Notes: generated by a model from the sequence alone, not told the origin. A stretch of 64,000 nucleotides of DNA from Gammaproteobacteria bacterium (GCA_025350055.1 JANXYK010000022.1:36988-100987); one strand, 5' to 3'; counted from the first letter of the stretch, positions 6,925-30,804 are shown. Translations and numbers: made by a program.

Positions 6925-7627
6925 GGTACGCCGCTACCGTCACCACGTATCGCTCGTACAGCTCCGGCAGCTGTTCCGCCACGATTTCCCCGCCTTGCAG
7001 CGGTGCCTGTGCGAGCGCTGAGCGCAACAGATCAGCGCTCATCGCCGCCAGCGCGGGGCCGGCCACCGGGGCAAAGCTCAAGTGCCAGGGCTCGGGCAGT
7101 ACGCCGCCGCGATCCTGGTCATAGGGCCTGAAAAAACCGTAGTCCGTGGCACGTTCGCCCAGCCAGTCGTTGAGCGCGGCATAGCGTCCGTCGGGGGCAA
7201 AATCCACGTCCAGCAGATCGATCGGACCCTGCGCCGGCGCCGTGCGGCGATCGACGAGGTCGCAGTCCGAACCCCAATGGTGGCGGCTGGCGCCGGGGAG
7301 CGCTGACCAGACCAGGATGGCCGCGACCCGCTCGGCCGGGCTCAAGGCGGCGCTGTCGAGCACGCTGTTGTCGCGGCCGCGCAGGATGCGCTCGCCCTTG
7401 TATTTGGCATTCCAGATCCACAGCTGCTGCTCGAAGCTGCGGAACGAGGAAATCGGCACGATCTCGATGCCATCGGCCAGCGCCGCCCGGCTCATGGTCT
7501 GCAGTGCCAAAAGGGCATCGCAATGCAGCGTACAGCGAGGCTGCTCGCACTGCTGTACGTGGCTGCTGGCGCGGCCGGTAAGCTCCAGTTCGCTTAAAAC
7601 AGCCGAATTGGCGTACGGGGATTGCAT
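6899..7627 (-). CDS. M15-family metallopeptidase (VanY/D-Ala-D-Ala carboxypeptidase-like), no signal peptide
   Basis: SRHHWGSDCDL (SxHxxGxAxD-like) and EPWH motifs. The 3' end overlaps the HD gene by 26 nt (convergent). Confidence 0.65.
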   Translation of the reverse strand: MQSPYANSAVLSELELTGRASSHVQQCEQPRCTLHCDALLALQTMSRAALADGIEIVPISSFRSFEQQLWIWNAKYKGERILRGRDNSVLDSAALSPAERVAAILVWSALPGASRHHWGSDCDLVDRRTAPAQGPIDLLDVDFAPDGRYAALNDWLGERATDYGFFRPYDQDRGGVLPEPWHLSFAPVAGPALAAMSADLLRSALAQAPLQGGEIVAEQLPELYERYVVTVAAYPSRAARPA

Positions 7628-17645: not shown

Positions 17646-20483
17646 ATGCACGCCCTTGATCATGTCGATGCCGGTACACCCGCGAGCATAGCCACGCGCA
17701 CCGTCACGCTGGAGATCGATGGGGTTGCGACCTCGGTGCCTGAGGGGACCTCGATCATGCGCGCGGCCGCGATGGTGGATACGCGCATTCCGAAACTGTG
17801 CGCCACTGATAATCTCAAGGCCTTCGGCTCCTGCCGCCTGTGCCTGGTGGAGATCGAGGGTCGCAAGGGGTATCCGGCGTCCTGCACTACGCTGGTGAGC
17901 GAGGGCATGAAAGTGCATACGCAGTCGGAGCGACTCACCGAGTTGCGTCGCGGCGTGATGGATCTCTATCTCTCCGATCATCCGGCTGCGCTGATTGCGG
18001 CCGATGCGCCCGCGCGCACCGAGATCCGCGAGATGGCGCAGGCGCTGGGCATGACCAAGAGTGGCTACGCCAGCGATGGCGTGCGCCATGCGGGTCTGCC
18101 GAAGGACGAGAGCAATCCCTATTTCACTTTCGACCCGAACGCCTGCATCGTCTGCTCGCGCTGCGTGCGGGCCTGCGATGAAGTGCAGGGCACCCTGGCG
18201 CTGACCATCGAAGGGCGCGGCTTCGGCTCGCGCGTCGCGGCCAGCCAGGGCGAGAGTTTCCTGGATTCCGAGTGCGTGTCCTGCGGTGCCTGTGTGGAAG
18301 CCTGCCCGACCACGGCGCTGCAGGAAAAAACGCTGATCGCGGCAGCGACGCCGAAGCAGGCCACGACCACGACCTGCGCCTATTGCGGCGTGGGCTGTTC
18401 GCTGGTGGCCGAGGTCAGCAATGGCGAAGTGACTCGCATGGTGCCCGATCGCGATGGCCATGCGAACCAGGGCCACGCCTGTGTGAAGGGCCGCTTCGCC
18501 TACGGCTATGCGACGCACAAGGATCGCATCCGCAAGCCGATGATCCGCGCCAAGATCACCGACCCGTGGCAGGAAGTCTCGTGGGAAACCGCGCTCAATC
18601 ATGCGGCCAGCGAGTTCAAGCGCATCCAGGCCAGGTATGGGCGCGATTCGGTCGGCGGCATCACCTCTTCACGCTGCACTAACGAAGAAGCCTACCTGGT
18701 GCAGAAGCTGGTGCGTGCGGCATTCGGCAACAACAATGTCGATACCTGCGCGCGCGTCTGCCATTCGCCCACCGGTTACGGTTTGAAGCAGACGCTGGGT
18801 GAGTCGGCGGGCACGCAGGCTTTCAACTCCGTGATGAAGTCCGACGTGGTCATGCTGGTCGGTGCGAACCCGACCGAAGGCCATCCGGTATTCGCTTCGC
18901 AGTTGAAGCGCGCCCTGCGCGCCGGCGCGAAGCTGATCGTCGTCGATCCGCGCGCCATCGCGCTGGTGCGCACGCCGCATATCGAAGCGCAGCATCACCT
19001 GCAGCTGCTGCCGGGCACCAACGTCGCGCTGCTGACGGCGCTCGCACATGTGATCGTCACCGAGAAGCTGGCGAAAGAGAATTACGTCGCCGAGCGCTGC
19101 GAGAGCGAATCCTGGCAGCGCTGGGTCGCGGCGGTGTCGCGGCCAGAGAATTCGCCCGAGGCGAGTGCAGCGATCACCGGTGTGCCAGCCGCCGAAGTGC
19201 GCGCCGCGGCGCGCCTGTATGCCAATGCCGGCAATGGCGCGATCTATTACGGCCTCGGTGTCACCGAGCACAGCCAGGGCACGACCGCGGTGATGTGCAT
19301 CGCCAACCTCGCGATGGCCACCGGGAACCTGGGCCGCGAGGGCGTGGGCGTCAATCCGCTGCGCGGCCAGAACAATGTGCAGGGCTCCTGCGACGTGGGT
19401 TCGTTCCCGCACGAGCTCGCGGGTTACCGGCACATCTCCGACCCCAACACGCGCGCGCTGTTCGATGGCGCCTGGGGCGTGAAGCTGCTGGATGAACCGG
19501 GCCTGCGCATCCCGAACATGTTTGAGGCGGCGCTCGATGGCAGCTTCAAGGGCATCTACATCCAGGGCGAGGACATGGCGCAGTCCGACCCGAACACGCA
19601 GCATGTGGCTGCGGCCTTTTCGGCGATGGAATGCGTGGTGGTGCAGGACCTGTTCCTGAACGAGACCGCGCTCTATGCCCACGTGCTGCTGCCGGGCTCC
19701 TCGTTCCTCGAGAAGGATGGCACCTTCACCAACGCCGAGCGGCGCATCTCGCGCGTGCGCAAGGTGATGGAGCCGCTGGCCGGCCTCGCCGACTGGGAAG
19801 TCACGGTGGCCTTGTCGAACAAGCTCGGCTATCCGATGACTTACCAGCATCCGTCCGAGGTGATGGACGAGATCGCGCGGCTCACGCCGACCTTCCACGG
19901 GGTGACGTACGAGAAGATCGATCGGCTCGGCAGCGTGCAGTGGCCCTGCAACGAGGCGGCGCCCGAGGGCACGCCGACTATGCACATCGATCGCTTCGTG
20001 CGCGGCAAGGGTCGCTTCTTCGTCACGGACTACGTCGCCACCAGCGAACGGGTATCGGCACGCTTCCCGCTGCTGCTCACCACGGGTCGCATCCTCAGCC
20101 AGTACAACGTGGGCGCGCAGACGCGCCGCACGCACAATGTGGTCTGGCACGATGAAGACGTGCTGGAGATCAACCCGCACGATGCCGAGACGCGCGGCAT
20201 TGTCGATGGCGACTGGGTCGGCATCACGAGTCGTGCCGGTGAAACGGTGCTGCGTGCCGACGTGACCGAGCGCGTGCCGCCGAGCGTGGTGTATACGACT
20301 TTCCATTTCCCGGAATCCGGCGCGAATGTCGTTACCACCGAGCTTTCCGACTGGGCGACCAATTGCCCCGAGTACAAGGTGACCGCGGTGCAGGTGGTGA
20401 AGGTCGCGAAGCCTTCGGCCTGGCAGCAGCGCCATCGCGAACTGGTGGCGCGGCAGAAGATCAAGGGCCATGTGGTGTCGTAG
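17646..20483 (+). CDS. fdsA: formate dehydrogenase alpha subunit (molybdopterin, multiple Fe-S clusters)
   Basis: N-terminal 2Fe-2S and 4Fe-4S Cys clusters, CAYCGVGC MopB cluster, and a 945-aa Mo-bisPGD fold with Cys (not Sec) chemistry. Confidence 0.9.
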   Translation: MHALDHVDAGTPASIATRTVTLEIDGVATSVPEGTSIMRAAAMVDTRIPKLCATDNLKAFGSCRLCLVEIEGRKGYPASCTTLVSEGMKVHTQSERLTELRRGVMDLYLSDHPAALIAADAPARTEIREMAQALGMTKSGYASDGVRHAGLPKDESNPYFTFDPNACIVCSRCVRACDEVQGTLALTIEGRGFGSRVAASQGESFLDSECVSCGACVEACPTTALQEKTLIAAATPKQATTTTCAYCGVGCSLVAEVSNGEVTRMVPDRDGHANQGHACVKGRFAYGYATHKDRIRKPMIRAKITDPWQEVSWETALNHAASEFKRIQARYGRDSVGGITSSRCTNEEAYLVQKLVRAAFGNNNVDTCARVCHSPTGYGLKQTLGESAGTQAFNSVMKSDVVMLVGANPTEGHPVFASQLKRALRAGAKLIVVDPRAIALVRTPHIEAQHHLQLLPGTNVALLTALAHVIVTEKLAKENYVAERCESESWQRWVAAVSRPENSPEASAAITGVPAAEVRAAARLYANAGNGAIYYGLGVTEHSQGTTAVMCIANLAMATGNLGREGVGVNPLRGQNNVQGSCDVGSFPHELAGYRHISDPNTRALFDGAWGVKLLDEPGLRIPNMFEAALDGSFKGIYIQGEDMAQSDPNTQHVAAAFSAMECVVVQDLFLNETALYAHVLLPGSSFLEKDGTFTNAERRISRVRKVMEPLAGLADWEVTVALSNKLGYPMTYQHPSEVMDEIARLTPTFHGVTYEKIDRLGSVQWPCNEAAPEGTPTMHIDRFVRGKGRFFVTDYVATSERVSARFPLLLTTGRILSQYNVGAQTRRTHNVVWHDEDVLEINPHDAETRGIVDGDWVGITSRAGETVLRADVTERVPPSVVYTTFHFPESGANVVTTELSDWATNCPEYKVTAVQVVKVAKPSAWQQRHRELVARQKIKGHVVS

Positions 20484-20507
20484 CGCTCGCCGCGTGACCC
20501 GCAAGCC

Positions 20508-21362
20508 ATGAACAGCGCCGCCGCTGCGGCCTCAGGCGCGGACGCGCGCGCAGCTACGCGTGCGGCCTCGCGTGTAGTCCGTCGCACGCAATACCGGCAT
20601 GGTGCGCCCACGATGGGCGAACGCGTGATCGCTGAAGAGACGGCAATCGCCTTTACCTACAATCGCGTCACCCATGCGGTGATGATGGCGACGCCGGCCG
20701 ATCTCGAGGATTTCGCGGTCGGCTTCAGCCTGGCCGAGGGCATCATCCACGCGCCCGCGGATATCGCGGCGCTGCAGATCGTGGCGGTGGATCTCGGCGT
20801 TGAGCTGCGCATGGATATCAGCGCCACGCTCGCCTCGCAGCTGGAGGCGCGCCGGCGCCACATCGCCGGCGTCAGCGGTTGCGGCATGTGCGGCCTGGAA
20901 AGCCTGGAACAGGCGATGCGCAGGCCACCGACCGTGACATCGCGGCTGACGGTGACGCCCGCGATGATCGCCGCGGCGATCGCGCAATTGCCGGCGCTGC
21001 AAGCGATCAACCAACTCACGCGCGCGGTGCACGCGGCGGCGTTCTGGCAGCCAGCCATTGGGCTGGTCGCGTTACGCGAAGATGTCGGTCGCCACAATGC
21101 GCTCGACAAACTGGCGGGTGCACTGACCAGAACCGGCATCGCAGCGGTCGAGGGCGTGGTGCTGCTCACCAGCCGCGTGTCGATCGAGCTGGTGCAGAAG
21201 GTGGCACTGATGGGCATGCCGATCATCGTGGCCGTGTCGGCGCCGACGGCACTGGCGGTACGGGTCGCCGAGGCCGCGGGCATCACGCTCATCGGCGTGG
21301 CGCGCGAGGATGGATTCGAGATTTTCACGCATGCGCAGCGCATTGCTGCATCGGGAGACTGA
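20508..21362 (+). CDS. fdhD: formate dehydrogenase accessory sulfurtransferase FdhD
   Basis: TPADLEDFAVGFSLAEGII, GCGMCG and GRHNALDK FdhD signatures. Confidence 0.85.
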   Translation: MNSAAAAASGADARAATRAASRVVRRTQYRHGAPTMGERVIAEETAIAFTYNRVTHAVMMATPADLEDFAVGFSLAEGIIHAPADIAALQIVAVDLGVELRMDISATLASQLEARRRHIAGVSGCGMCGLESLEQAMRRPPTVTSRLTVTPAMIAAAIAQLPALQAINQLTRAVHAAAFWQPAIGLVALREDVGRHNALDKLAGALTRTGIAAVEGVVLLTSRVSIELVQKVALMGMPIIVAVSAPTALAVRVAEAAGITLIGVAREDGFEIFTHAQRIAASGD

Positions 21363-21363
21363 G

Positions 21364-21576
21364 ATGGAAGCGGAACGACTGGTCAGCATGGCCAATCAGA
21401 TCGCCGTGTTCTTCGAACACGAGGAACCCGCCAAGGCGGTGGAGCGCACCGCCGATCACCTGCGCAAGTACTGGGATCCGCGCATGCGCAAGGCGATCAT
21501 CGCGCACCTCAAGAGCGGCGGCGCTGGTCTGGCGCCGCTGGTGAAAAGCGCGGTGGGTCTGCTGCCGCAGACGTGA
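21364..21576 (+). CDS. fdsD: formate dehydrogenase delta subunit
   Basis: 70-aa protein LVSMANQIAVFFE....HL.KYWDPRMR typical of FdsD. ATG 21364 is 1 nt after the fdhD stop. Confidence 0.75.
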   Translation: MEAERLVSMANQIAVFFEHEEPAKAVERTADHLRKYWDPRMRKAIIAHLKSGGAGLAPLVKSAVGLLPQT

Positions 21577-22322
21577 GCACCCGCCCGGCCAGCATTTTCC
21601 TGGTCGATGACGAACCCGCCATCGCCGAGGCGGTCAGCTTCGCGCTGCAGGCCGAGGGTTTCCGCTGCCGCCATTTCGCCACTGGCGGCGACTGTCTGGC
21701 CGCACTGGCCGGCGAGCAACCCGACCTGGTGCTGCTGGACATCGGCCTGCCCGATGGCAATGGCTTCGACTTCTTCAGGCGCATCCGCGAGCAGGGCGAT
21801 GTGCCGGTGGTATTCCTGACGGCGCGCAAGGAAGAGATCGATCGCGTGGTCGGGCTCGAGATGGGCGCCGACGACTACGTGGTCAAGCCCTTCAGCCTGC
21901 GCGAGCTGATGGCGCGGGTGCGCATGGTGATCCGTCGCAGTGCGGCGGCGCCAGCGAGCAATGCGGTGTCCGCGACTGCAGCCACGCCGGGTGGTGGTTC
22001 GAGCTCGGCGGGTGCTGCGCCGACTGTGGTTGGTCGATTCCAGCAGGATTCGCTGCGACGTCAGATCCGCTACGCGGGCAGTGCACTCGACCTGACGCTG
22101 CACGAATACCGCCTGCTCGAAGTACTGCTGCGCCACGTGGGTCGCGTGTTCACGCGCGCGCAACTGCTCGATCAGGCCTGGGAAGCGCCCGATCATCGCC
22201 TCGATCGCACCATCGACAGCCACATCAAGAGCCTGCGCGCGAAACTGCGTGCCATCGACGCGACTGCCGATCCGATCCACACGCACCGCGGCATGGGCTA
22301 TTCGCTGGAAATCGGCGCTTGA
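21573..22322 (+). CDS. creB: OmpR-family response regulator, CreB-like, with a low-complexity Ala/Ser/Gly linker insert
   Basis: IFLVDDEP receiver and HRGMGYSL winged helix, paired with a CreC-like kinase. GTG 21573 overlaps the fdsD stop (GTGA). Confidence 0.65.
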   Translation: MSTRPASIFLVDDEPAIAEAVSFALQAEGFRCRHFATGGDCLAALAGEQPDLVLLDIGLPDGNGFDFFRRIREQGDVPVVFLTARKEEIDRVVGLEMGADDYVVKPFSLRELMARVRMVIRRSAAAPASNAVSATAATPGGGSSSAGAAPTVVGRFQQDSLRRQIRYAGSALDLTLHEYRLLEVLLRHVGRVFTRAQLLDQAWEAPDHRLDRTIDSHIKSLRAKLRAIDATADPIHTHRGMGYSLEIGA

Positions 22323-23764
22323 GCATCCGCGCCAAGATCTTCCTGGTATTCGTTGCCGCGGTGGTGGCCGGCTTCGGCCTGCTGGCTTACTGGGTCGCCG
22401 GCGACTTGCGCTCGCGCTACAGCGAATCCTTCGAAGAGGTCATGGTCGATGGTGCGCATCTGCTGGCCGCGCAGCTCGCACAGAGCTGGGAGCAGCCGGC
22501 CACCGATCGATTTGCGGCGTTGCAGGGCGCGATGCAGACGCTGCGCGAGCAGACTTTCTCGGCGCGCATTTACTCCGTCGACAAGACCAGTGCCGATATC
22601 CGCGTCTACGTGACCGATGACCTCGGCGATCTGCTCTACGACTCGCGGCCGGGTTCCACACCGGGCGAAGACTATTCGCGCTGGATCGATGTGGCGCGCA
22701 CGATCGCGGGCGGCTACGGCGCGCGCACCACGGAAGAACCCGCGGCCGCGACGACCACGGTCTCGGTAGCCTACGTGGGCGCGCCCATCCTCGTGAACGG
22801 CAAGCTCGTGGGTGTGGTGAGTCTCGGCAAACCCAAGACCAACATCCAGCGCTTCGTCGACAACGCGCGCCGCAAGCTGATCTATGCGGTGCTGGCCGCC
22901 TCCGGTGTCGCCATCATCCTGGCGCTGCTGCTGTACCTGTGGGTCTCGCGCCCGCTGCAGTCGCTGGTCGAATATGCGCATGCGGTAGGTGAGGGCCGCA
23001 GCGAACATCTGCCGCTGCTGGGTGACAACGAGATCGGCCGCGTCGGCGAGGCGATCGAGACGATGCGCAAGGCGCTCGAGGACAAGGCCTATGTCGAAAC
23101 CTACGTGCAGTCGCTAACGCACGAGGTGAAGAGCCCGCTGACCGCAATCCGTGCCAGCGCCGAGCTGCTCGCAGGCGAGGTGCCCGCTGAACGGCGCGTT
23201 GCATTCGTGCAGACCATCGAGAGCGAAGTCGATCGTCTGAGCGATATTTCTGATCGGCTGCTGGAGCTCGCGGCACTCGAGCGCAGTGGGCGCTTGCGCC
23301 ACGCCGAGCCGGTGGCACTGCATGCGCTGGCAGCTCGGGTTGCGGCTGCAACGCGGGCCAGCGCCGCGGCGCGCGGCGTGAGCGTCACCGAGAGCTACAG
23401 TGGGAGCGACGCGGTGCGCGGTGACCCGCTGCTACTGCAGCAGGCGATCGACAACCTGCTGCGCAACGCGCTGGATTTCTCAGGTGCAGGGCAGACCGTG
23501 GCACTCAGTGCCAGCGCCGACAACCTGGGCGTCACGATCAGCGTGCAGGACGAGGGCCCCGGCATTCCCGAGTACGCGCGCGAGCGAATCTTCGACCGCT
23601 TCTATTCACTGCCGCGGCCGGCGAGCGGCCGCAAGTCCACGGGCCTCGGCCTCAACTTCGTGCGCGAAGTGGCCCAGCTGCACGGGGGCAGCATCACGAT
23701 CGAGAATCCGCCGCGTGGCACGCTGGCGCTGCTGTTCATTCCCTGGCGGCCGCCCTACGCCTGA
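22319..23764 (+). CDS. creC: sensor histidine kinase, CreC-like
   Basis: Periplasmic-domain motifs DYSRWIDV, YGARTT and VVSLGKP. H-box LTHEVKSPLTAIR. C-terminal RIFDRFYSLPR..GLGLNFV matches my recollection of E. coli CreC. TTGA overlap with creB. Confidence 0.65.
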   Translation: MSIRAKIFLVFVAAVVAGFGLLAYWVAGDLRSRYSESFEEVMVDGAHLLAAQLAQSWEQPATDRFAALQGAMQTLREQTFSARIYSVDKTSADIRVYVTDDLGDLLYDSRPGSTPGEDYSRWIDVARTIAGGYGARTTEEPAAATTTVSVAYVGAPILVNGKLVGVVSLGKPKTNIQRFVDNARRKLIYAVLAASGVAIILALLLYLWVSRPLQSLVEYAHAVGEGRSEHLPLLGDNEIGRVGEAIETMRKALEDKAYVETYVQSLTHEVKSPLTAIRASAELLAGEVPAERRVAFVQTIESEVDRLSDISDRLLELAALERSGRLRHAEPVALHALAARVAAATRASAAARGVSVTESYSGSDAVRGDPLLLQQAIDNLLRNALDFSGAGQTVALSASADNLGVTISVQDEGPGIPEYARERIFDRFYSLPRPASGRKSTGLGLNFVREVAQLHGGSITIENPPRGTLALLFIPWRPPYA

Positions 23765-23801: not shown

Positions 23802-23828
23802 TCCACACGTTCTCCACGTCAATTCCAC
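23802..23828 (+). promoter_or_regulatory. three direct TCCAC repeats with exact 11-bp phasing (cre-tag-like candidate response-regulator site)
   Basis: TCCAC at 23802-06, 23813-17 and 23824-28 (TTCCAC / TCTCCAC / TTCCAC), 60-86 bp upstream of ATG 23888. A GGAG SD sits at 23877-80. Confidence 0.5.
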
Positions 23829-23887: not shown

Positions 23888-25888
23888 ATGATCGCCATCA
23901 AGACCCGCCTGCGCCGGCTGTGCACGGTGCTTGCGCTGGTCAGTGTTTTCATCCTGTCCTTCAGCATGAGTCGCGCCGCCGGCGAGCCCGAAACCCCGCA
24001 GTCGCCGTACTTCGCAGTCCAGAACGACTCGGGTCTCGACCAGTTCCCGATGAAGGACAGCAAGATCACGGTGCGCCTGAACGGCGTGATCGCGAGCGTC
24101 CATGTGCGCCAGCACTATCGCAACGAGGGCAAGGCGCCGATCAACGCCCGCTACATCTTTCCGGGCTCCACTCGCGCTGCCGTCAATGCGATGACGATGA
24201 CGATCGGCGATCGCCGGCTGGTGGCGCAGATCAAGGAGAAGCAGCAGGCGCGGCAGATCTTCGCGGCCGCGAAAGCCGCGGGCCAGACAGCCTCGCTCCT
24301 CAGCCAGCAGCGCCCGAATGTGTTTTCGATGGATGTCGCCAACATCGTCGCGGGTGACGATGTCGTGGTCGACATGGAGTACACCGAATTCCTCAGCGCC
24401 AACGAGGGCGTGTACGAATTCATGTACCCGGGCGTGGTCGGTCCGCGCTATGGCGGTGATGCCGATCGCGCGGGACCTGGCCAGGCAGTCGCGTGGATCT
24501 CGAACCCGTACCTGCGCAAGGGCAAGGACAGTGCCACCACGCAGGACATCGAAGTGCAGCTGGCTTCGCCGATCGTGATCCATGACCTGCAGTCGCCCAC
24601 GCACCAGATCATCACGCGCTGGAGCGGCCCCGGCAACGCCGTGGTGCGCCTCAACGAGCCGCGCGAGAGCGCCGGCAATCGCGACTACGTGCTGCGCTAC
24701 CGATTGCAGGACAACGCCATCGTCTCGGGCATCACGCGCTTCACGGCCGGCAATGAAAACTACTTCATGCTGCAGGCCGAGCCGCCCAAGCGCGTGGCGC
24801 GCGCCGACCTGCCGGCGCGCGACTACGTGTTCATCCTCGACATCTCGGGTTCGATGGAGGGCTTTCCGCTCACGACCGCCAAATCGCTGATCGACAAGTT
24901 GCTCGCCGGCCTCAACAGCAACGACCGCTTCAACATCCTGTTTTTTTCCGGCGGCTCGCAGACCCTGAGCCCGGCCTCGCTCCCCGTGACGCCGGAGAAC
25001 CTGGCGCTGGCGCGCGAGATGCTGAGCCACATGTCGGGTGGCGGTGGCACCGAACTGTTGCCGGCGTTGCAACAGGCGCTCGCGATGCCGGTGGCGGAAG
25101 GCACCTCGCGCAGTCTCGTGGTGATCACCGATGGCTACATCACCGCCGAGGGCAGCGCCTTCCGGCTGGTGGACGAAAACCTCGGCCACAACAACCTGTT
25201 CGCCTTCGGCATCGGCAGCGCCGTGAACCGCTTCCTGATCGAGGGACTGGCGAAGGTGGGTCGCGCCGAAGCCTTCGTGGTCAGCAACGAGAACGACGCG
25301 GCGCGCGAAGCCGAGCGCTTCCGCAACTACATCTCGGCGCCGGTTCTGACCGACATCAAGGTGTCGGGCAATGGCGTGGAGCTGTATGACACCGAGCCCG
25401 CGGCGCAGCCCGACCTGCTGGCCGAGCGTCCGATCCTGGTGCTGGGCAAATACCGTGGCGCCAGCGGCACTGCCAGCATCGAGCTCTCGGGCATTGCCGG
25501 CAGTGGTCCGAAGAGCTGGAAGTTCGCACTCAGCGATGCCGACAAGGATCGCAACCTCCCGCTGTTGTGGGCGCGCAAGCGGCTCGAGCGCCTGTATGTG
25601 TTTCCCAATGCGGCCGACACGGCGCGCGAGGAAATCCTAAGCCTCGGCATGAAGTATTCGCTGCTCACCAGCGCGACTTCATTCATCGCGGTTGACGAGA
25701 AGATCTCGAACAGTGGTGCGCCGGCGGCTGATGTCAAGCAGCCCCAGCCACTCCCGGCGGGTGTGGAGAACACTGCCGTCGGCGCACCGCTCCAGCCGGC
25801 GCCCGAGCCCGAGGCACCGCTGCTGGTCTGGTTTGCTGCCCTGTTGCTGGCGCTGCGCGCATTGTTGCGCAGGTCGAGTGGTGTTTAA
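23888..25888 (+). CDS. secreted VIT + von Willebrand factor A domain protein with C-terminal PEP-CTERM-like sorting tail
   Basis: Signal peptide; VIT-like N-terminus (..YIFPGSTRAAVNAMTMTIGDRRLVAQIKEK..RPNVFSMDVANI); MIDAS FILDISGSMEG. The tail is APEPE, then the hydrophobic stretch APLLVWFAALLLALRALL, then RR. Confidence 0.85.
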   Translation: MIAIKTRLRRLCTVLALVSVFILSFSMSRAAGEPETPQSPYFAVQNDSGLDQFPMKDSKITVRLNGVIASVHVRQHYRNEGKAPINARYIFPGSTRAAVNAMTMTIGDRRLVAQIKEKQQARQIFAAAKAAGQTASLLSQQRPNVFSMDVANIVAGDDVVVDMEYTEFLSANEGVYEFMYPGVVGPRYGGDADRAGPGQAVAWISNPYLRKGKDSATTQDIEVQLASPIVIHDLQSPTHQIITRWSGPGNAVVRLNEPRESAGNRDYVLRYRLQDNAIVSGITRFTAGNENYFMLQAEPPKRVARADLPARDYVFILDISGSMEGFPLTTAKSLIDKLLAGLNSNDRFNILFFSGGSQTLSPASLPVTPENLALAREMLSHMSGGGGTELLPALQQALAMPVAEGTSRSLVVITDGYITAEGSAFRLVDENLGHNNLFAFGIGSAVNRFLIEGLAKVGRAEAFVVSNENDAAREAERFRNYISAPVLTDIKVSGNGVELYDTEPAAQPDLLAERPILVLGKYRGASGTASIELSGIAGSGPKSWKFALSDADKDRNLPLLWARKRLERLYVFPNAADTAREEILSLGMKYSLLTSATSFIAVDEKISNSGAPAADVKQPQPLPAGVENTAVGAPLQPAPEPEAPLLVWFAALLLALRALLRRSSGV

Positions 25889-26675
25889 TCCACTGACACA
25901 AGCCCGGCAGTCACTGCTTTGGTGGCTGCCGGCCGCTGGCATCGCTGCAGCGCTGAAGTGGCACTTCAGCGCTGCAGACTCCTGGGCGCTGAATTGGATG
26001 CTGCAGCCGCTGTCGCTTGCACTGCACGGGTTCACCGGTTGGAATTTCCTGCGCACCGCGGATGGCGACTGGACAAGCCGCGATGCCGGCATCGCGCTGG
26101 TGAAAGCCTGCGCAGGCATCAACTTCATGACCATGTCGTTCATCGCCTGGTGCCTGACGTTGCAGCCGAAGTGGGCCGACGCACCGGTGCTGTCGCCAGT
26201 CGCGTTGTGGCCGAAGCGAACGCCGTGGCAGCCGTTGCCGCCCACGCCGGTGTCGGCGTCGGTGCCGGCGCAGCCGCGTCCCGAGCTACTCGAGTGCGCA
26301 CGGCGGCTGGCAGCGGCGCTGCTGCTCGCCTGGCTCAGCGCACTCGCCGTCAATACGCTGCGCGTGATCGCCGTGGTGCACTGGCAACCGTCATTGCAAC
26401 AGTGGATGGCACCTGAAACCGCGCATCGGCTGATCGGCATAGTGATCTACCTGAGCGCACTCACGCTGCAGCTGCTGCCGGGCGAGGGGCGGCGCTGGAA
26501 CAAGGCCGCGCTTCACGGCGCGCTGATCTATGGCGCCGTGATGCTGATCCTGCCCATGTTGAGTGGCAACGCCGTGGCGAGCCCGGCGCAATACGTCGAG
26601 CATGCACTCGCGGTGCTGATCGTCATGGTGCCGCTGCTCGCGGCGGCGCTGCTCAGCCGATATGGAACACGTTGA
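25878..26675 (+). CDS. compact exosortase/archaeosortase-family intramembrane protein (about 265 aa, about 7 TM)
   Basis: Motifs in the expected order inside TM helices: ACAGI (Cys 26109-11), NTLRV (Arg 26361-63) and AHRLIG (His 26424-26). GTG 25878/25881 overlaps the TAA of the VIT gene (25886-88). Track ORF start 25692 rejected. Confidence 0.7.
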   Translation: MVFNPLTQARQSLLWWLPAAGIAAALKWHFSAADSWALNWMLQPLSLALHGFTGWNFLRTADGDWTSRDAGIALVKACAGINFMTMSFIAWCLTLQPKWADAPVLSPVALWPKRTPWQPLPPTPVSASVPAQPRPELLECARRLAAALLLAWLSALAVNTLRVIAVVHWQPSLQQWMAPETAHRLIGIVIYLSALTLQLLPGEGRRWNKAALHGALIYGAVMLILPMLSGNAVASPAQYVEHALAVLIVMVPLLAAALLSRYGTR

Positions 26676-27021
26676 GCTTGTTGCCGTCGAGGTCGCGGAA
26701 GTAGCCGGCGTAGAAGCCATCGCCGCGCGGGCCGGGCGCGCCTTCGTCCTTGCCGCCCAGTGCCATGGCCTTGCCATGCAGCGCATCGACCTTGGCCTTG
26801 CTGTCGACCACCAGCGACACCATTGAACCGTTGCCTATGGTCGCGGGTTTCTTGTCATAGGGCAGGATTACGCCGAGCCCGGGCAGCTGCGGGTTCACGC
26901 TCCAGGCCACCAGCCGCTCGGATTCCATCATGCGCTTGGCGCCCAGTTCGCCCAGCAGTGCATCGTAGAAGCCCGCAGCGCGTTGCAGATTGTTGGTGCC
27001 CAGTGTGACGTAGCCGATCAT
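26653..27021 (-). CDS. VOC/glyoxalase-family protein
   Basis: 122 aa, MIGYVTLGTNNL...FYAGYFRDLDGNKL typical of the glyoxalase/bleomycin-resistance fold. Confidence 0.8.
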   Translation of the reverse strand: MIGYVTLGTNNLQRAAGFYDALLGELGAKRMMESERLVAWSVNPQLPGLGVILPYDKKPATIGNGSMVSLVVDSKAKVDALHGKAMALGGKDEGAPGPRGDGFYAGYFRDLDGNKLNVFHIG

Positions 27022-30241: not shown

Positions 30242-30535
30242 TCAGGGCAGGAAACCCAGCTCACGTTGATGTCGTAGGGCGAGGATGCGCACCTCGTCGC
30301 TTGGAACCACGAAGCGATATAAGGCGATATACCCGGTCTGGCCGTAGGAAATGACCAGCTCGCGAATCTCATCGGCGATGCGTCTACCGATGAGCGGGTG
30401 CCTCGCGAGGTTGTCGACCGCAGTCTGAATGGCGACGACAGCAGCAAGCGCTGCCGACGGATTTTCCTGCTTCAGGAATTCAAACACGCGCTCGAGGTCT
30501 ACCAGCGAGCGTCGTGAATAAACTACCGTTGCCAC
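30242..30535 (-). CDS. parE: type II toxin, RelE/ParE family
   Basis: 97 aa. The pattern ..DLERVFEFL......A......I......L...P.IGR.....RELV......Y.ALYR is typical of ParE-type toxins. It overlaps the antitoxin stop. Confidence 0.8.
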   Translation of the reverse strand: MATVVYSRRSLVDLERVFEFLKQENPSAALAAVVAIQTAVDNLARHPLIGRRIADEIRELVISYGQTGYIALYRFVVPSDEVRILALRHQRELGFLP

Positions 30536-30804
30536 GCTTTCGGTCGCGGTGCCGCTACGCCATTGGCAAGTCGAGTCATCCAGGCGTGCACGTCCTCGGC
30601 ACGATAGACCTCGCCAGTGCGTTCAATCTCCTCGTCAGCTGCCATTGCGTCCTTGACTAAGCGCCGCATCTGTTCCTCGTAGGCCGCATGCCGTTCAACG
30701 GCCTCAACGATCAGACTGTGAGCAGAACGGCCAGATTGCCTGGCCAGCGTCTGCACGCGCGAGCGCAGCTTTGGTGGCAGACGGATTGTGGTAGTGGCGA
30801 CCAT
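30523..30804 (-). CDS. ribbon-helix-helix (CopG-like) antitoxin
   Basis: TTIRLPPKLRSRVQTLARQSGRSAHSLIVEAVERH RHH motif. Start trimmed to ATG 30804. Confidence 0.75.
   Translation of the reverse strand: MVATTTIRLPPKLRSRVQTLARQSGRSAHSLIVEAVERHAAYEEQMRRLVKDAMAADEEIERTGEVYRAEDVHAWMTRLANGVAAPRPKAWQR

Follow-up and report, generated by a model that had tools for sequence, protein, structure and literature searches.

We analysed 64,000 nt of DNA from a gammaproteobacterium (GCA_025350055.1, contig JANXYK010000022.1, positions 36988–100987; this whole stretch is hereinafter designated the window), in which a small gene at 25881–26675 encodes a protein of the exosortase K family (hereinafter designated XrtK). 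The gene lies directly downstream of the gene of a secreted protein with VIT and VWA domains, its presumptive substrate (hereinafter designated the cargo), and the pair follows the genes of a CreB/CreC-type two-component system. The features of the locus, in window coordinates, are as follows.

21573–22322, + strand: CreB-type response regulator of the OmpR family, 249 aa (model NF008296, 292.4 bits against a cutoff of 273).
22319–23764, + strand: CreC-type sensor histidine kinase, 481 aa (model NF008312, 509.8 bits against a cutoff of 356).
23802–23828, + strand: candidate site of CreB binding, TCCACacgttcTCCACgtcaatTCCAC, in which three TCCAC units follow one another every 11 bp (–86 to –60 relative to the ATG of the cargo gene).
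23888–25888, + strand: cargo gene, secreted 666-aa VIT + VWA protein with a signal-peptide-like N-terminus and a metal-ion-dependent adhesion site (MIDAS), DISGS, at residue 318 (Pfam, TIGR03788).
25796–25885, + strand: tripartite C-terminal signal of the cargo, consisting of P-A-P-E-P-E, a hydrophobic helix and basic RRSSGV; the PEP codons are at 25802–25810.
25881–26675, + strand: xrtK, exosortase K family protein, 264 aa (TIGR04287, public gene calls, AlphaFold2 model).
26109–26111, + strand: TGC codon of the putative catalytic Cys77 in the motif KACAGINF; Cys in 148 of 148 aligned representatives.
26163–26291, + strand: variable, Pro-rich loop that joins the Cys helix to the Arg helix, residues ~95–137; 27% Pro, predicted local distance difference test (pLDDT) scores of 55–67.
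26352–26363, + strand: N-T-L-R motif with Asn158 (149 of 150 representatives) and the putative catalytic Arg161 (150 of 150).
26424–26438, + strand: H-R-L-I-G motif with the putative catalytic His182 and Gly186 (each 150 of 150).

The xrtK frame is open on the + strand from 25692 to 26675 and contains in-frame GTG codons at 25878 and 25881, the cargo stop codon TAA lying at 25886–25888. We number residues from 25881 (C77, N158, R161 and H182) because public gene calls on identical DNA start at the equivalent codon and give a 264-aa product, and because close homologues share the N-terminus MFNPLT; the original prediction counted from 25878 and its residue numbers are one higher. From 25881, the GTG start sits inside the cargo gene and the two genes overlap by 8 nt.

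XrtK scores 63.2 bits (E = 1.9e-17) against TIGR04287, the NCBIfam model of exosortase K, whose curated cutoff is 55; the match is split into two stretches because the loop insertion interrupts the alignment. No other family was matched in the NCBIfam and Pfam scans. All 25 close relatives match TIGR04287 and 23 of them match TIGR04178, the exosortase/archaeosortase signature (E ≤ 0.01), and among sampled distant relatives 72 of 72 match TIGR04287 and 61 of 72 also TIGR04178 (E ≤ 0.001). A profile search of 1.84 billion representative proteins returned 1544 relatives at E ≤ 0.001, 247 of them at E ≤ 1e-30, and the name exosortase K has already been given by JGI/NCBI to homologues from Steroidobacteraceae, Desulfobacterales, Acidobacteriota and Thermoanaerobaculia. 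The gene is conserved in 28 genome loci recovered from a scan of one genome per species, all of them metagenome-assembled genomes (MAGs), mostly of Steroidobacteraceae and other Gammaproteobacteria, with some Vicinamibacterales and one Polyangiaceae. The exosortase-family call of the original prediction was thus upheld, and the product of 25881–26675 is, on its sequence, an exosortase K family enzyme, an ordinary member of an already auto-annotated family rather than a new kind. The small size noted at the outset holds against exosortases in general, whereas within exosortase K the 264 aa of this protein lie at the family median (265 aa).

The window's xrtK is 100% identical in DNA and protein, Pro-rich stretch included, to its counterpart in an NCBI MAG (GCA_043724525.1, contig JAYSMQ010000020.1). 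Logan assemblies of three separate sequencing runs contain this DNA as well, and two of them cover xrtK completely or almost completely. Irregular xrtK frames were seen elsewhere: in the Steroidobacteraceae loci L014 (5881–7893) and L013 (3112–4479) and in protein P0028 the frame overruns the usual C-terminus (670, 455 and 380 aa, respectively), which could be due to stop-codon loss, fusion or frameshift.

The superfamily signature C-[SA]-G, N-x-x-R and H-x-x-x-G is present in XrtK in this order and at the ends of predicted membrane helices. The Cys, Arg (CGC, 26361–26363) and His (CAT, 26424–26426) codons lie exactly where the original prediction had placed them, with the Asn codon (AAT) at 26352–26354. 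Conservation was scored over 150 family representatives clustered at 50% identity, 148 of which have a residue in the Cys column, and Cys77 is likewise invariant in the XrtK alignments A1 and A3. The AlphaFold2 (AF2) model, built from a 25-sequence alignment, is an all-helical membrane bundle with a mean pLDDT of 87.7 and a predicted template modelling score of 0.82; helices are predicted at residues 5–32, 39–53, 76–94, 135–173, 179–199, 207–229 and 236–263, with a short beta-hairpin at 65–74. The three motifs, which had been proposed to lie within membrane helices, map to the ends of helices 76–94, 135–173 and 179–199, and the hydropathy peaks agree with this layout. We infer that the basic loops, namely residues 95–142 (six Lys/Arg), 200–208 (three) and the C-terminal tail (two), are cytoplasmic, and that three successive helices carry Cys77, Asn158/Arg161 and His182 at their periplasmic ends. 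The cargo's P-E-P motif would be on the same membrane face as these residues.

The cargo contains VIT and VWA domains (VIT, 107.7 bits; VWA_3, 63.4 bits) and an intact DxSxS MIDAS. Over nearly its full length it aligns with TIGR03788, a marine proteobacterial sortase target family, at 402.7 bits, under the cutoff of 551.65. Nine cargos of other lineages likewise score 404–427 bits on this model, and on that ground the exosortase K cargos appear to be a sister clade of the TIGR03788 family. An LPXTG motif was sought in the cargo and is absent. The C-terminus instead carries the tripartite tail PAPEPE-APLLVWFAALLLALRALL-RRSSGV. Of 120 cargo homologues, 116 have an [A/M]PEP motif 29–37 residues before the C-terminal end, the genome loci show the same pattern, and the motif reads VPEPEL or GSEPEL in distant phyla. 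Several other cargos show weak, tail-only matches to the MSEP-CTERM model TIGR04286 (E 0.004–0.07), suggesting that the type of signal is related and the protein family is not the same. In a motif scan of the 64-kb window the cargo is the sole open reading frame (ORF) with a PEP-type tail. Variation of this kind is known from the VIT/vWA family, whose members bear LPXTG, PEP-CTERM or GlyGly-CTERM signals in different lineages (PMC3237569).

The pairing of cargo and enzyme is consistent across genomes. In all genome loci with enough upstream sequence, the start of xrtK meets the end of a VIT+VWA gene of 650–740 aa, and a VIT+VWA gene directly precedes xrtK in all six of six further distant loci, which come from a Deltaproteobacteria MAG, a Desulfobacteraceae contig, Pyrinomonadaceae, Thermoanaerobaculia and two more assemblies. 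This arrangement therefore holds in all informative loci (~30), from several phyla. The overlap of the GTG start with the cargo TAA, already pointed out in the original prediction, was confirmed, and such a start/stop overlap is shared by 22 of 23 loci, measuring 8 nt in 12 of them, 17 nt in six, 14 nt in one and 4 nt in three. The conservation of this geometry supports translational coupling of cargo and xrtK as a conserved design.

Other genes flank the cassette in the window. A convergent glyoxalase/VOC-family gene (122 aa, 26653–27021, – strand) overlaps the last 23 nt of xrtK with its 3′ end; the cassette therefore ends there, without space for an intervening terminator. Promoter and terminator scans of the window gave nothing useful in DNA of 66% GC. 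Upstream of creB, at 17646–21362, lie genes for a formate dehydrogenase alpha subunit (945 aa; TIGR01591, 910 bits) and FdhD, which we do not count as part of the cassette because they are common only to the two closest genomes. About 3.5 kb downstream of xrtK, at ~30242–30804 on the – strand (6991–7553 in locus L029), a gene for a ParE-family toxin and the small gene upstream of it are probably a toxin-antitoxin pair. One Steroidobacteraceae MAG (JAXMGO01) contains two copies of the cassette, L022 (3960–6348) and L013 (1218–4479). In L022 the PEP motif of the cargo tail is not read in frame (AVWRFAHARARARMDG) and xrtK has a short frame of 196 aa; perhaps this copy is a paralogue undergoing decay, or else it reflects faulty assembly.

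The start of creC overlaps the stop of creB, and the same CreB/CreC pair stands upstream of the cargo, in the same order, in 18 related loci. Most gammaproteobacterial loci, and some distant ones, have this pair next to cargo and xrtK. Directly downstream of xrtK, an OmpR-type regulator and a kinase are found in three distant loci: L033 (Deltaproteobacteria MAG), L037 (Desulfobacteraceae contig) and L035 (Thermoanaerobaculia metagenome contig); the two pairs tested, those of L033 and L035, are CreB and CreC above the curated cutoffs. The link between CreBC and the cassette is accordingly seen in Gammaproteobacteria, in the Deltaproteobacteria MAG and the Desulfobacteraceae contig, and in Thermoanaerobaculia. 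No creD gene was seen in its usual position at the window locus.

A spacer of 124 nt separates creC from the cargo gene, and the TCCAC repeats fall within it. Of 16 loci, 15 have the relaxed phased motif T[TC]CA[CT]N6T[TC]CA[CT] in the kinase–cargo spacer; its density there, 6.25 per kb, is ~800-fold above the 0.008 per kb found elsewhere in the loci. The spacer pentamers across loci are mostly TCCAC or TCCAT, in three or four copies, and phased TTCAC repeats also precede the cargo in L033 and L035. In locus L009 (1582–3975), ~2.4 kb separates the CreC gene from the cargo, compared with ~120 nt elsewhere, and the spacer carries inserted DNA. The published cre/blr tag, TTCACN6TTCAC, lies upstream of creD and, in Stenotrophomonas, at –80 to –65 (PMC4689548). 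The repeats of the window, TCCAC-N6-TCCAC-N6-TCCAC, have one mismatch per pentamer to this tag and appear to match it in sequence type, spacing and position; they may be bound by CreB. On this reading, CreB would activate the cargo–xrtK operon in the place that creD holds in enterobacteria. No paper linking an exosortase with CreB or CreC was found in the literature searched.

We consider it likely, with good confidence, that XrtK is dedicated to the upstream cargo and cleaves it at the PEP motif, that the two genes form an operon switched by CreBC, and that the Pro-rich loop is tolerated. The mechanism of the superfamily is known mainly from archaeosortase ArtA (PMC6098224), and by analogy XrtK would be a small polytopic inner-membrane cysteine protease or transpeptidase. 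The VIT+VWA cargo would be exported via its N-terminal signal peptide, its C-terminal helix serving as a temporary anchor in the inner membrane. XrtK would then recognise the P-E-P motif just outside this helix, and Cys77, together with Arg161 and His182, would attack the motif and remove the anchor via an acyl-enzyme intermediate. The intermediate may be resolved by transfer to some acceptor or by water, and the adhesin-like cargo would be displayed on the surface or released. Cargo and xrtK probably constitute one operon, coupled by the 8-nt overlap and presumably switched on by CreB/CreC via the TCCAC repeats.

The last step of this scheme is where the strongest rival departs from it. XrtK might be a release protease only, clipping the anchor and shedding the VIT+VWA protein to the periplasm or medium, with no transfer to an acceptor. 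In the loci examined, no acceptor-related gene (glycosyltransferase, exopolysaccharide (EPS) locus, PssA/PssD-like) is conserved beside the pair, which makes simple release a serious alternative. It is also established enzymology that hydrolysis is the default fate of acyl-enzyme intermediates. The best-studied relative, ArtA, argues the other way, coupling cleavage to lipid anchoring (PMC6098224), and nothing in the sequence discriminates between release and transfer. We regard exclusive release as rather unlikely, though it deserves to be taken seriously.

A second rival concerns the Pro-rich loop, which could be a functional module, for instance a cytoplasmic docking site or a regulator of activity. 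The loop contains 27% Pro compared with 8% for XrtK as a whole. It is predicted to be disordered and is probably cytoplasmic. Relative to the closest genome (L001, 82% identical), xrtK of the window is longer here by 81 nt with the frame kept, and the Cys-to-Arg spacing of 84 residues in its product, the second longest, exceeds by 35 the mode of 49 found in 112 of 148 representatives. The insert is real, since it occurs as identical DNA in three assemblies, is in frame and has a GC content at third codon positions (GC3) of 0.88 in the xrtK frame. An imperfect 14-nt direct repeat at 26158 and 26203 (LQPK / LWPK) hints that it arose by local duplication. The longest spacing (91 residues) belongs to P0262, an unrelated representative of exosortase K, with a Pro-rich insertion in the same loop at residues ~105–160 and an internal repeat, RGVSPKAPLPTREIEDS / RGVPPWAPLATHAIQDK.

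The independent insertion in P0262 at the same site, and the retention of the window's insert in frame with coding-like GC3, speak for a functional role. Against it, the closest relatives, 78–86% identical to the window's XrtK, are without the insert. One of these, P0004, is on an 84,616-nt contig; a cargo at least 90% identical to the window's is also on an 84,616-nt contig. Most representatives keep the minimal 49-residue spacing, the loop sequence is unconserved even among neighbours, and its pLDDT is low. A functional loop is thus quite improbable. Our reading, from the sequence comparison, is that the segment is a recent strain-level expansion of a family-wide variable loop that appears to be an insertion hot spot in exosortase K, and the insertion is most likely tolerated rather than functional. 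The Pro-rich insertion described at the outset stands, as an expansion of this loop and not as a distinct module. A loop that tolerates large insertions could serve as a tagging site in the enzyme; the insertion itself is a strain-level curiosity.

Several observations weigh against the dedicated, CreBC-switched XrtK–cargo system that we favour. XrtK scores 22.5 bits on TIGR04178, just under the cutoff of 23, and 19.0 bits on Pfam PF09721 (Exosortase_EpsH), where the cutoff is 25.7; both matches fall on the Arg–His half of the protein. The warning that automated annotation might mis-start the gene or call it hypothetical is borne out to the extent that Pfam alone misses it, whereas gene callers chose the right start and homologues are named exosortase K. 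A sequence-profile search of the PDB with XrtK found nothing, the PDB holding no exosortase structure, and the membrane topology was derived by applying the positive-inside rule by hand to hydropathy peaks and AF2 helices. On TIGR04286 the cargo reaches 10.8 bits (cutoff, 150; E = 0.082), over profile positions 822–907 of 920, and by this measure it is outside the MSEP-CTERM family. CreBC is absent from the Vicinamibacterales loci and some other loci, and the pentamer here is TCCAC rather than TTCAC. Within the window alone, matches to the E. coli tag with two mismatches number 21 versus 27 expected, which is not significant; the repeat signal emerges only when position, phasing and cross-locus conservation are considered. 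No paper on exosortase K or MSEP-CTERM was found in the literature searched, and no experimentally studied member was found.

Pressed further, the sub-threshold Pfam match could mean that XrtK comes from some other, unrelated family of membrane proteins, or is a relic without catalytic activity, its motif likeness being coincidental. A Foldseek comparison of the XrtK model with the PDB, which returned noise only (E > 1, top matches G-protein-coupled receptors and P-type ATPases), could be read the same way, but both empty PDB comparisons reflect the absence of any solved exosortase. The curated subfamily model TIGR04287 is passed with no competing family, the triad residues are invariant in the 150 representatives, and XrtK is obligately paired with a protein bearing a tripartite C-terminal signal, all of which makes this reading highly implausible. 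The profiles place the protein in exosortase K and its Cys, Arg and His positions are conserved, as the original prediction had expected. The suggestion that the xrtK frame is a GC-rich artefact, that the 253-aa antisense ORF at 25679–26440 (of a sort common in 66% GC DNA) is the true gene and that the insert is an assembly error has a negligible chance of being right, as the first two parts are ruled out by the conservation of the xrtK frame (homologues in 28 genomes and >1500 representative clusters, motifs conserved in this frame, GC3 of 0.79–0.88) and the third by identical sequence in independent assemblies.

The preferred system, a dedicated XrtK–cargo pair under CreBC, can be extended across phyla, and we put this extension forward tentatively, as something plausible that falls short of probable. 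CreBC would be wired to the exosortase K/VIT+VWA adhesin pair via cre-tag-like repeats in several phyla, and a main output of CreBC in environmental bacteria would be the regulated surface display of one adhesin. The cargo family would have been swapped between sortase, exosortase and rhombosortase handling, and, secondarily, the Pro-rich loop would be a possible functional add-on.

The enzyme by itself adds little, as a recognisable exosortase K already named by curated models and public pipelines. The wider interest lies in the universal pairing of XrtK with a VIT+VWA protein and in the cross-phylum link to CreBC, which are comparative inferences and do not amount to a new kind of system. 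The recurrence of CreBC together with cre-tag-like repeats offers a testable regulatory hypothesis, both for a sorting system and for the poorly understood CreBC.

The closest known system is exosortase K with MSEP-CTERM (TIGR04287/TIGR04286). The enzyme of the window resembles it in passing the curated model and in size, helix layout and invariant Cys, Arg and His residues, and here too a single cargo gene lies immediately upstream of xrtK. The cargo tail is of the same build (x-[S/P]-E-P, then a transmembrane helix and clustered basic residues), and it gives a weak match to the final ~90 positions of the MSEP-CTERM profile. In contrast, the cargo here is a VIT+VWA protein that fails TIGR04286 and aligns end to end with TIGR03788, and its motif is [A/M]PEP rather than MSEP. 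The window comes from a gammaproteobacterium that probably belongs with the Steroidobacteraceae, whereas canonical XrtK, by its TIGRFAMs description, is a Bacteroidetes system paired with MSEP-CTERM. The window's Cys-to-Arg loop is also 35 residues over the family mode.

Compared with exosortase A/EpsH (TIGR03109, TIGR02602, PF09721) and archaeosortase A, XrtK shares the Cys/Arg/His signature and the C-terminal half of the fold. Weak but specific matches to hidden Markov models fall on XrtK residues ~142–203, and some relatives match XrtA directly. XrtK here is much shorter than XrtA, has one cargo versus many PEP-CTERM proteins, and scores far below the XrtA/EpsH cutoffs. No EPS locus was seen near the window cassette. 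The canonical PEP-CTERM/XrtA system was rejected as a description of this locus, given that TIGR02595 is not among the NCBIfam matches of the cargo (E ≤ 1) and that no EPS genes lie nearby.

The regulatory half of the locus resembles the creBC-creD cluster of E. coli, Aeromonas, Pseudomonas and Stenotrophomonas. The CreB and CreC models are passed, the gene presumed to be regulated lies directly downstream of creC, and 11-bp-spaced pentamer repeats are found ~60–86 nt upstream of its start, as for creD (PMC4689548). The differences are that a VIT+VWA cargo and xrtK, not creD, lie downstream, that the pentamers are mostly TCCAC/TCCAT rather than TTCAC, in three or four copies, and that the order in distant phyla is cargo-xrtK-creB-creC.

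In overall organisation the locus parallels the proteobacterial dedicated sortase (Pds) system (sortase TIGR03784, target TIGR03788, kinase TIGR03785, regulator TIGR03787), which likewise combines a two-component system, a VIT+VWA protein and a dedicated sorting enzyme. It is not a Pds sortase system: the cutoffs of TIGR03788, TIGR03785 and TIGR03787 are failed, LPXTG is lacking and the adjacent enzyme is XrtK. The regulator (145.5 versus 335.7 bits on TIGR03787) and the kinase (115 versus 612.2 bits on TIGR03785) are here of the CreBC type, and sorting would be carried out by an exosortase. The cargo, by contrast, shares homology with the Pds target along almost its entire length, and the consistent pairing of XrtK with this sister group of the Pds target suggests one cargo family served by unrelated sorting enzymes.

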